A stretch of 64,000 nucleotides of DNA from a virus (IMGVR_UViG_2890449678_000009:1-64000), one strand, 5' to 3'; positions 1,281-33,786 are shown, numbered from the stretch's first letter. Translations and numbers: made by a program. Notes: generated by a model from the letters alone, not told the origin.

Positions 1281-1501
1281 TCTCCGCCCTCCTGTTCTTG
1301 CAAATCATCAGAGCGTGCACCGCATGTATCGCAAATCAACGGTTTCTCTTCGCAATGAGAACAAGGGGCACAAACATGACAGGAACAATGCTCAGACACT
1401 AGGAAATATCTTGTCCCATCGCATCCCATTACCTCACAGCTATCAATATCTACTCTCATCCCCGCCTCCATTTCTTCCAGAACACGACCGCGATCTTCCA
1501 C
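1277..1501 (-). CDS. Small Cys-rich (Zn-finger-like) phage protein
   Basis: CSCHVCAPCSHC and CDTCG; chained by overlaps in the leftward operon; start may be the internal MRVDID. Confidence 0.6.
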   Translation of the reverse strand: MEDRGRVLEEMEAGMRVDIDSCEVMGCDGTRYFLVSEHCSCHVCAPCSHCEEKPLICDTCGARSDDLQEQEGGE

Positions 1502-1644
1502 GGCCAGAACAGCATTGTTGTCAGTGTTGGGATGCCCCCTCGCGGGCAGTTAGGGCGGAAACGGCGCTCTCGATGTCTGACGTAGAGGCCCATTCCGCAA
1601 TAAATATTCATTGATAGAAGTATGGCATGAAAGATATTCATCAC
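1456..1644 (-). CDS. Small hydrophobic phage protein
   Basis: 4-nt overlap with the upstream ORF; FWPW-type membrane peptide. Confidence 0.5.
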   Translation of the reverse strand: MMNIFHAILLSMNIYCGMGLYVRHRERRFRPNCPRGGIPTLTTMLFWPWKIAVVFWKKWRRG

Positions 1645-30220: not shown

Positions 30221-31924
30221 ATGGCGCTTCTCGATCAACATGGGCAGCCTTTGCCGCCCCGCCCACAAAAGCCCGATATGGGTGCGTCTGTCATTGGCAG
30301 TCGCCCCGCCCTTGCTGACCCGATTGCCACCCTTGGCCTCGACCCGGCCCAACTTGGTATGCTTATGCGCTCCGCCGCAGAGGGCAATAGCCGGGACTGG
30401 CAGGTCTTTTGTGAGATGATTGAGGAGCGCGACCTTCATTATCTCGGCGTGTTGGGCACCCGCAAGCGGGCGGTGAGCCAGCTGCCCATGGTGGTGGAAG
30501 ACGCCGGGCCGTCACGCGCGCAGCGCAAGCAGGGCGACTTTGTGCGCCAATGGTTAGATAAAGGCATTTTGCAGCGCTCGGCTTTTGATGTCTTAGACGC
30601 GATTGCTAAGGGCTTCTCGGTTCATGAGATTTTCTGGCACACAGAGGCCGGTAATTATTGGCCGGAACGCTTAGTCTATCGCCCGCAGCGCTGGTTTGAA
30701 GTCTCTTACCAAGACGGCGAAACCATCTGGCTGCGTGACGACGCAAGCCAGTCCACGCCCGATATTGAGGGCGCTGTGGCTGAGGCAACCATGCGCCCGC
30801 TTGACCCGATGCGGGCGTTGGTTCATCGCCATCCGTCATGGTCGGGCCTGACCCTACGCTCTGGCCTGACACGGGCGGTGGCGTTTAATTCACTGTTCAA
30901 ACTCTTTTCAAACCGTGATTGGGGCCTGTTTGTGCAGGCTTACGGGGTTCCCACTCGCATTGGGAAATTTGACGCTTCCGCAACCGAGAATGACCGGCAG
31001 ACCCTTTGGCAGGCAGTGCGCGATATAACGGGAGCTGGAGCCTGCATGATCCCCGCTCAGATGCAGCTGGAGATCATCGAGCCCAAAAATGGCGCGGGGT
31101 CTAATGACACCCATGAGCGGCGCATTAAATGGCTCGATGAACAGACCTCCAAAGCGGTGCTCGGCCAAACAGGCACGACGGATGCCCGCCAAGGCACTCA
31201 TGCCGCAGCCTCTACCCATCGGCTGGTGCAGGAAGATATTGAGCGCTCTGATGCGATGATGTTGGCCCATACGGTCAACACGCAGCTGGTGCGGCTGATG
31301 ATTGACGCCAGTTTCGGCCCGCCTGCCGATGGACTTTACCCAACCATCACCATTGGCCGCCCTGATGAAGTGCCTGTTGAAACGCTGATTGATGCGGCGC
31401 AGAAACTCGGGCCACAGGGCTTTAAGGTGGCGGCCCCAGACCTGTATGCGCGCCTCAACCTTGAGCCCCCCGCTGAGGGTGATGAGACAGTCGGTATTGC
31501 CGTGCCGCCGCAACCGGCGCTGCCTGCCAAAGTGACTCCACCGCAGCAGCAAAACGGCCAAGCCACGCCGTCGCATTTCCCAACCCCGACCAGCCATGAT
31601 GAGGAGCCGCAGGAAGCCCCACCAACTAAGACGACCCTCCATAGTGCAGTCGGGCAGTTGGTCAATCGCTACGCCTCTCAGTCGCCGCAGATCATTGCAG
31701 CCTTGACCGATAACCTCGCCCGTGAGGCCAGTGCTGGCTTGGGGGCGATGACAGAAGCGGTGCGCGCTGAAATGGAGCACGCCACGTCCCTTGAGGATTT
31801 GAAGGACCGTCTGGAAAAGCTCAATCTGCCCGATGACCAATTTGCAACGGCTATGGCCCAAGCCATGCAATTAAGCGAGCTTGCTGGGGAAGCGGCCATG
31901 CTTGACGAGATGCGCCGTGGCTGA
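30221..31924 (+). CDS. Mu gp29-like portal (DUF935)
   Basis: EERDLH, RPQRWF, YGVPTRIGKF, SKAVLGQTGTT motifs. Confidence 0.94.
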   Translation: MALLDQHGQPLPPRPQKPDMGASVIGSRPALADPIATLGLDPAQLGMLMRSAAEGNSRDWQVFCEMIEERDLHYLGVLGTRKRAVSQLPMVVEDAGPSRAQRKQGDFVRQWLDKGILQRSAFDVLDAIAKGFSVHEIFWHTEAGNYWPERLVYRPQRWFEVSYQDGETIWLRDDASQSTPDIEGAVAEATMRPLDPMRALVHRHPSWSGLTLRSGLTRAVAFNSLFKLFSNRDWGLFVQAYGVPTRIGKFDASATENDRQTLWQAVRDITGAGACMIPAQMQLEIIEPKNGAGSNDTHERRIKWLDEQTSKAVLGQTGTTDARQGTHAAASTHRLVQEDIERSDAMMLAHTVNTQLVRLMIDASFGPPADGLYPTITIGRPDEVPVETLIDAAQKLGPQGFKVAAPDLYARLNLEPPAEGDETVGIAVPPQPALPAKVTPPQQQNGQATPSHFPTPTSHDEEPQEAPPTKTTLHSAVGQLVNRYASQSPQIIAALTDNLAREASAGLGAMTEAVRAEMEHATSLEDLKDRLEKLNLPDDQFATAMAQAMQLSELAGEAAMLDEMRRG

Positions 31925-33119
31925 GGAAGGCCCTATCCTCTCGCATGTGAAGCTCTCACCCAGTGAGGCGATCAGCTATTTTCGCCAGAAGGTCAATGTG
32001 CCGACTGAGCGTTGGGGGGAGCTGAGCTCAGAAGCACATGCGCGTGGGTTTGCCGTAGCGGGGGCCACAAGTGACGCGTTGCTGAATGATTTCCGCACCG
32101 CTATTGGGCGGGCGCTCAGTGATGGCACAACCCTTCAAGAGTTCCGAAAGTCTTTTGACTCCATTGTTAAAAAACATGGCTGGGAACATACGGGCACGCC
32201 AGGATGGCGGGCGAAGATCATCTATGAGACCAATATCGCCTCGGCCTATTCAGCGGGGCGTTATCGGCAGATGACCACGCCGACCGCGTTGGAGCTGTAT
32301 CCATACTGGCGGTATGTCCATCACAGCTGTGCCCATCCACGCCCCACCCATGTGGCGTGGAGCGGAACGGTGTTGCGCAATGATGACCCGTGGTGGGGCA
32401 CGCATTACCCGCCCAATGGCTGGCATTGCCATTGTTCGGTTGAAGTTGTGTCCGATGCGCGGATGGAGCGAAACGGTTGGAGCGTGGACGAAGCCCCGCC
32501 GCTAGAGAGGAAACCGTGGCGCAACCCGGCTACCGGCAAGATTGAGATGGTGCCTAAAGGGATTGATCCGGGCTTCCAGAGCAATCAGGGCTTGGAATGG
32601 GCAAAAGCTGAGAAAGCGCGTGCGTCCTCGTCCATGACACCGCTGACCCATGTAGGCGGCCTGCAGGTTGAGCAGCTCCCAGCCCCTGCGCGGATGAAGG
32701 TGCAAAAAGAGCAGATTGCCCAGTTCGCGTCCATGAAACCGCAGCCTGTGGGTATGGTTGAAGCGGGCACCTTGCCACCCAAGGTGCAGGAGCTGTTGGG
32801 GAGCCAGACTGCGCAGGTCTTGTTGTCTGCCGAAACATTGATGAAAAACCAGACCCACCATCCTGAGCTGACGCCAGACGAGTATGCGCAGCTTGCGGCT
32901 CTGTTGGCTGATCCTGATTATGTTTTGGAAGAGAAGCAGGAGGGACGTGTCAGCCTAGTCGCTCAGCATGACAGTATTTATCGCTTCATTGTGAAGAGGA
33001 CACGAGATGGAAAAGAAAACTTCATACTGTCCATGACCCGCATGAGACAGCGACCTGCTGATCAGCTCGTAAGAAACCGGACGGTGCTCTTTGCAAAGCA
33101 GAAGAATGAAGGAGAATGA
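31917..33119 (+). CDS. MuF / gp30 minor head protein with C-terminal BECR-like nuclease extension
   Basis: AISYFRQK, IYETN..AY.AGRY, PRPTH..W.G, YPPNGWHCHC, PKGIDPGF; extension K..HHPELT..EY...P...VKRT...FILS. Confidence 0.88.
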   Translation: MAEEGPILSHVKLSPSEAISYFRQKVNVPTERWGELSSEAHARGFAVAGATSDALLNDFRTAIGRALSDGTTLQEFRKSFDSIVKKHGWEHTGTPGWRAKIIYETNIASAYSAGRYRQMTTPTALELYPYWRYVHHSCAHPRPTHVAWSGTVLRNDDPWWGTHYPPNGWHCHCSVEVVSDARMERNGWSVDEAPPLERKPWRNPATGKIEMVPKGIDPGFQSNQGLEWAKAEKARASSSMTPLTHVGGLQVEQLPAPARMKVQKEQIAQFASMKPQPVGMVEAGTLPPKVQELLGSQTAQVLLSAETLMKNQTHHPELTPDEYAQLAALLADPDYVLEEKQEGRVSLVAQHDSIYRFIVKRTRDGKENFILSMTRMRQRPADQLVRNRTVLFAKQKNEGE

Positions 33120-33221
33120 AGCAACGCACGGGTGGGGCCTGCTATCTAACCCCACAATAGTGCTCTACCCATGCGGGCATGCCCTGGTCAGCAGAATATC
33201 GCCAGATCACCGTGCGTTGCT
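33120..33221 (+). ncRNA. Candidate structured RNA directly downstream of MuF
   Basis: Perfect 12-bp closing stem (33120-33131 with 33210-33221) enclosing three hairpins; complementary loops CTGCT/AGCAG. Confidence 0.55.
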
Positions 33222-33288
33222 CCCTCTAAAATAGGATGAACGTCGGCAGCGATCAAGACAAATCATGAAGCAGCGATAGGATAACGTC

Positions 33289-33786
33289 ATGGCCCTCATT
33301 AAGATTAGTGGAAACACAGACCGCATTTCTGCTGCCCTTTCTCGACTAGAGAAGCTCGGAAGAGAGCCGAATGCGCTTTTGTCGGATATCGGGCTTAAGA
33401 TGGTTGACCGAACGAAAGAACGCATAGAAAGGGAAGTCTCTCCCGATGGCAGTCCTTTTGCGCCGCTTAATCCGCTTTATGCTTCGACAAAAAAAGGGCC
33501 AGGCATTCTTCGTGAAAGCGGATCTCTCCGCAGGACCATTTATAAGCAGATTGAGGGCAACCGCCTGATCTGGGGTTCAAACATGAATTACGCTGCTGTG
33601 CATCAATTTGGGGCGATTATTAAACCCAAGACACAGTCGGCGTTAGAGTTTAGTATTGGCGGACGGGTGTTTAAGCGCCAATCTGTGACCATTCCAGCGC
33701 GGCCTTATCTTGGCTTTAATGAGGCCGACCGGCAGGCGACGGTGGAGACGCTTCAGACATTTTTCCGACGTTGTCTGGCGGGCTAA
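33289..33786 (+). CDS. Mu gpG-like virion morphogenesis protein
   Basis: SPDG..FAPL, ILRESG.L, GSN..YAAVHQFG, IPARPYLG. Confidence 0.93.
   Translation: MALIKISGNTDRISAALSRLEKLGREPNALLSDIGLKMVDRTKERIEREVSPDGSPFAPLNPLYASTKKGPGILRESGSLRRTIYKQIEGNRLIWGSNMNYAAVHQFGAIIKPKTQSALEFSIGGRVFKRQSVTIPARPYLGFNEADRQATVETLQTFFRRCLAG

Follow-up and report, generated by a model that had tools for sequence, protein, structure and literature searches.

The 64,000-nucleotide (nt) stretch of viral DNA IMGVR_UViG_2890449678_000009:1-64000, referred to below as the window, encodes a 102-nt structured RNA (33120..33221, + strand) directly downstream of the gene of the MuF (gpF) minor head protein. The RNA folds into a four-way junction with a kissing loop, is a member of a conserved RNA family and no chance palindrome, and is read in the sense (+) strand. 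It accompanies MuF proteins with an intact C-terminal domain, which is a predicted RNase of the BECR fold. We give about an even chance to the reading that the RNA is a specific ligand of this RNase domain, as its inhibitor or its substrate. As far as Rfam 15 and the full-text literature show, the RNA family appears to be new; the protein part was already known.

Structure and position of the RNA

The first base of the element (33120) directly adjoins the MuF stop codon, TGA at 33117-33119. The outer stem P1 consists of 12 perfect pairs between the 5' arm AGCAACGCACGG (33120..33131, + strand, as are all features below) and the 3' arm CCGTGCGTTGCT (33210..33221). Three hairpins are enclosed by it: P2 (33132..33155), in which GTGGGG 33132-33137 pairs with CCCCAC 33150-33155, the variable P3 (33168..33177), which has 3 bp in the window (CCC 33168-33170 with GGG 33175-33177), and P4 (33184..33205), in which CTGGT 33184-33188 pairs with GCCAG 33201-33205, the innermost pair being a T·G wobble. 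P2 and P3 are separated by the single-stranded junction J2/3, AAUAGUGCUCUA (33156..33167), which falls into conserved columns of the family alignments A3, A5 and A6. The kissing strands, CTGCT 33139-33143 in the P2 loop and AGCAG 33190-33194 in the P4 loop, are complementary. The first-pass annotation of this DNA had described a 102-nt element with a 12-bp stem and three hairpins right after the MuF stop, and all arms were found where it had placed them, both in the sequence and with ViennaRNA.

ViennaRNA recovered the identical four-way architecture with a minimum free energy of -42.7 kcal/mol and a z-score of -2.94, 1 of 200 shuffles being as stable. The minus strand folded equally well or better (z -3.45); therefore, the energy alone settles neither the reality of the element nor its strand, and the comparative data do. 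With the covariance models R1 and R2 the element scored 89 and 71 bits, respectively, and it is single-copy within the 78.8-kb provirus record. The cmscan of 32600-33700 against Rfam 15 with E-values up to 10, a search that the first-pass annotation had proposed, gave no family match; only two chance hits were returned (E 5.5 and 6.2; 12 bits versus gathering scores of 33 and 80) and no hit to the tRNA clan. ARAGORN detected no tRNA genes in the window.

No + strand terminator-like site and no sigma-70-like promoter were detected in 32900-33450, in agreement with the earlier statement that a U-tail is absent, and a terminator was set aside as a candidate for this reason. The gap between MuF and the next gene, gpG, contains no conserved open reading frame (ORF) for an immunity protein, as had also been claimed; the RNA occupies the gap. 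The further claim that no plus-strand ORF precedes gpG was nearly right, except that a 47-aa frame with a TTG start (33091-33234) overlaps the element in a different frame. This small ORF was set aside as an explanation, since the variation among homologues consists of compensatory pair changes, with lengths from about 78 to about 135 nt, which is a non-coding pattern. A known self-cleaving ribozyme was set aside in view of the lack of an Rfam hit. A packaging RNA similar to phi29 pRNA was set aside as well, since Mu-like phages carry a terminase; intermolecular kissing remains compatible with the sequence.

Covariation and strand of the RNA family

A MuF locus 70% identical to that of the window (L002) has the element at the equivalent place. 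By inspection, 5 compensatory double changes distinguish its P1 from that of the window, and its kissing strands are CTGCC/GGCAG in place of CTGCT/AGCAG. In the MAFFT alignment of 8 Acetobacteraceae-type copies, 93.3% of the cells were paired and 16 of 33 pairs had changes on both sides; none of 500 shuffles was as high, and slid controls resulted in 32-50% paired. R1 was built from this 8-sequence set and R2 from 100 matches. The corresponding values were 91.9% paired cells and 22 of 30 covarying pairs with 29 sequences, and 94.8% paired cells and 24 of 30 pairs changed on both sides with 96 distinct sequences, the two larger alignments being fitted to the model and hence biased towards it, unlike the 8-sequence alignment. 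The covarying structure that the first-pass annotation had expected downstream of homologous domains was thus found.

Over the 96 sequences, P1, P2 and P3 were paired in 93.1%, 97.2% and 93.5%, with double changes in 8/8 modelled pairs, 6/6 pairs and 3/3 modelled pairs, respectively. The paired fraction of P4 was 92.6%; about two thirds of the 100 sequences had been retrieved by a fixed P4 pattern, so the variation of P4 is understated in those sequences. The kissing helix, noticed before as a complementarity of two loops, was paired in 99.1%, and 4 of its 5 pairs covary; one pair takes four forms (C-G 54, G-C 27, A-U 7 and U-A 1). U·G pairs are frequent in P4, with 88 of 96 at one pair and 36 at another. 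As U·G would be A·C on the opposite strand, the molecule is an RNA that runs in the same direction as the late genes.

The family consensus of J2/3 is about AUAGCGCUCC. Many viral members have an additional small hairpin in loop 2, 3' of the kissing strand, and the length of P3 varies freely, from the 3 bp of the window up to stems of at least 7 bp with long insertions in other members. An ATAG motif was present within 35 nt 3' of the RNA in 35 of 95 distinct members (mean of 200 shuffles 14.5, maximum 25), with the positions concentrated at +7 to +13 after P1. In the window, ATAG boxes are located at 33231..33234, about 10 nt 3' of P1, and at 33276-33279, just 5' of gpG. The recurrent box, ATAG or TATAG(G/C)C, resembles a -10 hexamer and also the AUAG of J2/3.

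The RNA is less frequent outside Acetobacteraceae: with the host of the window counted in both samples, it was carried by 3 of 151 genomes sampled from the class and 8 of 151 genomes sampled from the phylum. For one 19-base P4 sub-pattern alone, about 210 viral stretches were estimated in the whole collection. The blastn searches with the window region and with a typical family member against 50,697 records of cultured phages gave no match, so the family is so far without a tie to a laboratory phage. No paper describing an RNA after MuF was found in full-text searches, the coverage of which excludes subscription journals and supplements.

Fold of the MuF C-terminal domain

The MuF-C/PBECR-like domain (32712..33116, 135 aa modelled) was characterised by an AlphaFold2 model and by the conservation of homologues; its BECR core lies at about 32808-33086, with the codon of an invariant His at 32859-32861. 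The translation of the MuF frame includes KNQTHHPELTPDEYAQLAALLADPDYVL...FIVKRTRDGKENFILS. The AlphaFold2 model obtained with a 40-sequence alignment had a predicted local distance difference test score (pLDDT) of 94.1; a single-sequence model of the last 166 aa reached 41.6 and was discarded in favour of the alignment-based one. In the model, a helix at residues 40-49 is followed by strands at 70-73, 79-85, 89-96 and 103-111, which corresponds to the N-terminal helix and four- or five-stranded sheet of the BECR core. The nearest structures were BrnT (Z 6.9), the Salmonella toxin 7vd7 (Z 6.6) and the colicin D tRNase (Z 6.0), followed by CdiA-CT (Z 5.5-5.8), a second colicin D entry, 1tfk (Z 5.3), and RelE (Z 5.0). 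RelE/ParE- or BECR-type toxins, among them one ParE, made up 12 of the 13 top VIA-align hits (Z 4.8-6.9, 74-87 aligned residues), and BrnT was also the top match of Foldseek (E 0.011). The first-pass annotation had proposed a BECR fold for the C-terminal ~125 aa together with this structural check, and the outcome supports it. All E-values in the sequence search of the PDB were at least 0.37 for the single sequence and at least 0.67 for the profile.

Among 40 homologues, H50 was invariant and S39, K45, Y58, K95 and S107 were at least 90% conserved. In the model, H50 stands right after the helix 40-49 and S107 is located in the strand 103-111. This pattern agrees with the active-site pattern of PBECR given by Iyer et al. 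2017. The Pfam matches of the domain were below the curated cut-offs: MuF_C with E 0.005 (17.3-17.5 bits versus 27.6) and PBECR2 with E 0.008 (16.9-17.1 bits versus 27.1); PBECR3 and LPD13 were also among the sub-threshold matches of the last ~135 residues. At E-values up to 0.01, MuF_C, PBECR3, PBECR2 and LPD13 were matched by 4, 4, 2 and 6 of the 40 homologues, respectively.

Phage Mu gp30 matched the MuF-C profile built here with E 6e-8. According to Iyer et al. 2017, the C-terminus of Mu gp30 ("MuF-C") belongs to the PBECR clade; the copy of Mu is described there as inactive and predicted to bind RNA, and RNase activity is predicted for orthologues that keep the catalytic residues. The domain of the window probably corresponds also to the uncharacterised C-terminal extension of proteobacterial MuFs named "Ct_MAD" by Jamet et al. 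2017. The model and these relatives identify it as a predicted BECR-fold RNase, the ancestral MuF-C of Mu-type MuF proteins. Being a standard, already described part of these proteins, it is no polymorphic cassette, and the earlier assignment of the extension to the polymorphic toxins was not upheld.

Co-occurrence of the RNA and the domain

The association was determined in three samplings, started from the RNA, from the MuF N-terminus and from the domain. A 19-base P4 pattern retrieved 120 viral loci, and MuF-C was directly 5' of the RNA in 98 of them: where 1200 nt or more of upstream DNA was available (72 loci), 60 had an ORF ending with MuF-C, and of the 48 loci with shorter upstream flanks 38 had one. 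With two MuF-C motifs, taken from a 12-sequence sub-alignment, 80 viral loci were obtained, the MuF N-domain being within the same ORF at 76 loci. The RNA was detected in 78 of the 80, and the other 2 end at a contig edge, which makes 78 of 78 with enough downstream DNA; 60 of these RNAs were distinct. The model match started -10 to +13 nt from the MuF stop in 51 of the 78, and a second group of matches started at +24 to +38.

Using MuF N-terminal motifs as bait, 67 genome loci and 80 viral loci were retrieved. The domain type was present in 15 of the 67 genome loci, with an RNA model match in 10 of the 15; three others (L006, L040 and L045) had a shorter, divergent multi-hairpin element at the stop, and two (L043 and L050) had no element at all. 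The genome MuFs with other C-termini gave no match to the RNA model (0/52; 10 of the 52 end before the MuF stop). Among the viral loci, 19 of the 80 had the domain type and 11 of the 19 a model match. A divergent element at the stop was found in 6 (L234, which is the same contig as L006, L239, L251, L253, L272 and L283), and the remaining 2 (L259 and L269) are L043 and L050 retrieved a second time, of the degenerate lineage. Viral MuFs with other C-termini gave no match to the RNA model either (0/61).

Joint loss, variants and unusual placements

In the MuF proteins of L043 and L050, the His, Ser39, Lys95 and the last strand are gone, and the MuF stop overlaps the gpG start there (ATGA). Their close relatives L040 and L045 kept both the motif and the element. 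F and G of phage Mu share four bases, which leaves no space for the RNA. Few as they are, the losses of the RNA and of the catalytic motif point in the same direction.

The five viral loci L239, L251, L253, L272 and L283 share a variant, here called B, which is about 100 nt long and begins 8 nt before the MuF stop, so that its outer stem takes in the last MuF codons and the stop. The MuF-C motif of these loci is S[DEK]H[YF]K[TS]. Variant B shares J2/3 in the form UAGCGCUCAUCA and has an GUCGGCAGCC hairpin. No obvious kissing pair was seen in it, and neither R1 nor R2 detects it.

Two unusual placements were observed. In a Mu-like prophage of genome G118 (L078), the RNA follows gpT and a 202-aa ORF, 3 nt past the stop of that ORF, and does not follow MuF. 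In a metagenome-assembled genome of Moraxellaceae (L037), an unrelated element of about 90 nt (2788-2880), closed by the 9-bp stem GTGCCATGG / CCATGGCAC, begins directly after the stop of a MuF with another type of C-terminus.

Stand-alone copies in chromosomes

The RNA was detected in 18 of 151 Acetobacteraceae genomes, with 1-3 copies in each. Among 20 further Acetobacteraceae RNA loci, MuF was 5' of the RNA in three (L085, L090 and L084, of which L084 retains nothing but the C-terminal part, with a frameshift), and two had 61-66 aa left of the C-terminal half of MuF-C. Stand-alone RNAs are located among housekeeping genes (rlmN-argG, near queC and queD, and cobS) or near restriction-modification, Abi and insertion sequence (IS) genes. 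No protein common to their flanks was detected; tblastx gave only low-complexity, high-GC matches.

Genome G021 has three minus-strand copies, L087 1501-1593, L091 1501-1578 and L093 1501-1585 (locus coordinates), in contexts near queC, queD and ubiA, near a gene for a tRNA-editing domain, and near cobS and AbiTii. The flanks of L087 and L091 are common to both over about 110 nt on the upstream side and about 45 nt on the downstream side. The translations of these flanks resemble the C-terminal tail of MuF and the N-terminus of gpG, and G021 is without a MuF-C domain. The G021 copies may be either retained fragments of Mu-like prophages or a small mobile unit. By inspection, L087 and L091 show signs of decay: P1 contains mismatches or P3 is missing.

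At L089, two copies of the RNA are in tandem (1501-1606 and 1648-1761, + strand), about 40 nt apart and near a fragment of an IS1595-type transposase. Two stand-alone RNAs are located 200-300 nt 3' of tRNA genes on the same strand, L076 after tRNA-Val (648-722) and L079 after tRNA-Ser (1896-1985); in L079 a 61-aa remnant of MuF-C is situated between the tRNA and the RNA. Both arrangements are consistent with decayed elements at tRNA integration sites.

Gene order at the locus

The window lies within a Mu-like provirus, whose IMG/VR record has 78.8 kb and coincides in full identity with a contig of Saccharibacter sp. EH611. The gene order at the locus is large terminase, portal, MuF, gpG, protease/scaffold and major head protein gpT. 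The Mu-type portal gene (30221..31924) matched Pfam Portal_Mu with E 9.9e-82, and the gpG virion morphogenesis gene (33289..33786) matched Phage_tail_S with E 1.4e-29. The MuF gene (31917..33119) matched Phage_Mu_F with E 1.2e-17 over residues 70-187 of the 412-aa frame, and this frame also matched PHROG 220, 'minor head protein and DNA pilot', with E 7e-91. The longest MuF frame begins with TTG at 31881; GTG at 31917 is the likely start, judged from the alignment with L002, the protein of which has the N-terminus MPDPVLSHV.

Discussion

The tRNA-like shape of the RNA, the tRNA-cutting relatives of the domain, the position at the stop codon and the joint loss with the catalytic residues make a specific RNA ligand of the MuF-C RNase the best explanation of the element. 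Colicin D cuts tRNA, and the presence of its tRNase among the top structural neighbours agrees with a tRNA-shaped ligand. The favoured form of this reading, itself rated below even odds, is that the RNA is a tRNA-shaped pseudo-substrate that inhibits the RNase. The RNA would be transcribed within the phage late operon, starting at or overlapping the MuF stop, and a terminating ribosome would have to melt P1; on its departure, the RNA would refold beside the just-released domain. Since the domain would leave the ribosome as the ribosome arrives at the stop, at the foot of P1, the new domain would meet the refolded RNA in cis. In this manner, the RNA could restrain the RNase inside the cell that makes it, up to the assembly of MuF into the head. 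Next comes the form in which the RNA is the cleavage or operator site of the domain and sets the F-to-G expression ratio, which we consider unlikely. Cutting of the RNA by the domain might serve processing or autoregulation of F and G; as another alternative, the RNA might travel with the domain. That the RNA is a cis-encoded tRNA-shaped antitoxin of a virion-packaged BECR RNase, and that the bacterial orphan copies act as RNA immunity or decoys against the injected RNase, is in our estimate a rather doubtful combination.

Phage-linked orphan structured RNAs and RNase-RNA pairs have precedents. The domain resembles the MuF-C/PBECR domains (Iyer, Burroughs, Anand, de Souza and Aravind 2017; PF18819, PF18810, PF18812) in the C-terminal position in Mu-type MuF, in the BECR fold, in the His of the N-terminal helix region and the Ser/Thr in a late strand, and in being predicted to be packaged and injected. 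It differs by its Pfam scores below the cut-off (about 17 versus 27 bits) and by the RNA, as the passages of that paper covered here mention no associated RNA. With the MuF polymorphic toxins (Jamet et al. 2017) it shares the MuF N-domain joined to a predicted nuclease C-domain and the temperate phage; in contrast to them, the present C-domain is conserved and passed on vertically in Mu-like heads, with no swapped cassette, and an RNA follows in place of the downstream immunity ORF of the polymorphic toxin-immunity module.

Type III antitoxins are tandem repeats 5' of the toxin gene, cut by the toxin and assembled into cyclic complexes (compare PMC8860590). The type III toxin-antitoxin systems (ToxIN, CptIN, TenpIN) are similar to the present pair in that an endoribonuclease stands beside a structured non-coding RNA, and the logic of an RNA occupying the RNase is also the one proposed here. 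They differ in several respects: the tandem array is replaced by one unit per locus in nearly all homologues, only L089 having two; the RNA is directly downstream of the stop and not upstream with a terminator; and the BECR-fold domain is fused to a virion protein, with a single four-way-junction RNA. With tRNA and tRNA-like structures (viral tRNA-like structures, YrlA Y RNA, thrS operators), the RNA shares a closing stem with three hairpins, and its first and third loops touch in the way of the D and T loops of tRNA. However, P1 has 8-12 bp, the loops are joined by 5 Watson-Crick pairs, there is no CCA end, a conserved junction of 10-12 nt stands between P2 and P3, and neither ARAGORN nor Rfam finds a tRNA. 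A further structured RNA in the head-gene block of Mu-like prophages is Mu-gpT-DE, an orphan RNA motif of Rfam downstream of Mu-like gpT; it is likewise conserved and of no known function, but the present RNA follows F and not T and, as given above, has no Rfam 15 match at E-values up to 10.

Several results weigh against a ligand of MuF-C. By profile, 22 of the 120 RNA-first viral loci have no adjacent MuF-C (10 of these have short upstream flanks), and in Acetobacteraceae MuF-C or a remnant of it is 5' of the RNA in only 5 of the 20 further loci, with 15 of 20 lacking a detectable MuF-C; in four of the genomes that carry stand-alone RNAs, MuF-C is absent altogether. In the viral contig L146, the gene of a D12 N6-adenine methyltransferase intervenes between MuF and the RNA (1494-1595, minus strand), which starts about 12 nt beyond the stop of this gene and has gpG as its downstream neighbour; in L153 the RNA is about 145 nt 3' of a MuF-PBECR2 gene. 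The joint losses comprise two related lineages and Mu, which makes for a small number of independent events, and the fold-search Z-scores of 5-7 are only moderate. As the training set of the covariance models consisted of one variant, unrelated RNAs that follow other types of MuF could escape them. It is also awkward for a stoichiometric inhibitor that an mRNA carries one RNA yet yields many proteins. Finally, MuF-C and gpG are neighbours in all Mu-like heads, so a mere element between F and G would co-occur with MuF-C as well.

Such a generic intercistronic element, setting the relative expression of F and G or the fate of the mRNA with no need of MuF-C, is the main rival, and we judge it to lie on the unlikely side. 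It could work as a block to 3' exonucleases, by stalling ribosomes close to the stop, as a site of RNase P or RNase III, by protection against Rho or as a leader of gpG; stop-proximal ribosome stalling is reportedly caused by repetitive extragenic palindromic (REP) elements. It would account for the RNA filling nearly the entire gap between the MuF stop and gpG (of the 47 RNA-first loci with a gpG profile match, 45 have gpG starting 0-55 nt after the RNA), for the RNA of L146 staying beside gpG despite the inserted methyltransferase, for the ATAG/TATAG-like box recurring 7-13 nt after P1 and for the persistence of stand-alone copies without MuF-C. It would leave unexplained why the F-G junctions of MuFs with other C-termini (0/52 and 0/61), of the degenerate motif and of Mu have no match to the RNA, as a general expression device has no reason to follow catalytic residues. 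A roadblock to a nuclease or a ribosome would also need far less than a four-way junction whose kissing loop covaries, and a weak gpG profile of 5 sequences recognised the gene 3' of the RNA in no more than 47 of the 78 loci sampled from the RNA and 18 of the 80 sampled from the protein.

Improbable to our mind is an autonomous RNA with its own function, carried by phages and chromosomes either as a host decoy (orphan immunity) or as a small spreading fragment, perhaps via an RNA intermediate. It would fit the 1-3 copies in 18 of 151 Acetobacteraceae genomes, the 15 of 20 loci lacking MuF-C, the three copies of G021 with partly common flanks and no MuF-C in the genome, the tandem pair of L089 and the two copies 200-300 nt after tRNA genes. 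Opposed to it are the 98 of 120 RNA-first viral loci with MuF-C directly upstream and the appearance of the chromosomal copies with remnants, which look like decayed prophages; some stand-alone copies, L087 and L091, are themselves decaying, and no target-site duplications or transposase-type termini were seen in a non-systematic search. Hardly credible is an element acting as DNA, such as a cruciform or single-strand recombination site, a miniature inverted-repeat transposable element (MITE), a REP-type repeat or an integron attC-like site, despite the perfect terminal inverted repeat and a minus strand of equal folding stability, and although attC sites likewise abut stop codons and conserve structure over sequence. 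The frequent U·G pairs of the + strand would be A·C on the other strand, and covariation between the loops implies that a single strand folds into a tertiary structure. The arms differ between copies with compensation, unlike the terminal repeats bound by transposases. The five host genomes have one or two copies each (1, 1, 2, 1 and 1), and the 18 positive genomes of 151 have at most 3, in contrast to the many copies of dispersed repeats such as REP and MITE. An attC site was set aside since its consensus core sites were not seen in P1 by inspection.

The C-terminal domain of MuF has been a predicted RNase or RNA binder since 2017 with no target known, and the RNA described here is its first concrete candidate ligand. 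The RNA itself is a widespread new family, as judged from the databases and literature covered, with a well-defined tertiary contact, and is suited to Rfam and structural work. If the RNA inhibits the RNase, RNA antitoxins would be extended to virion-delivered effectors, and the stand-alone chromosomal copies would be candidates for a new anti-phage defence. If the RNA is an antitoxin and its orphan copies are decoys, the pair would represent a new class of RNA-protein conflict modules, distinct from the type III toxin-antitoxin systems.

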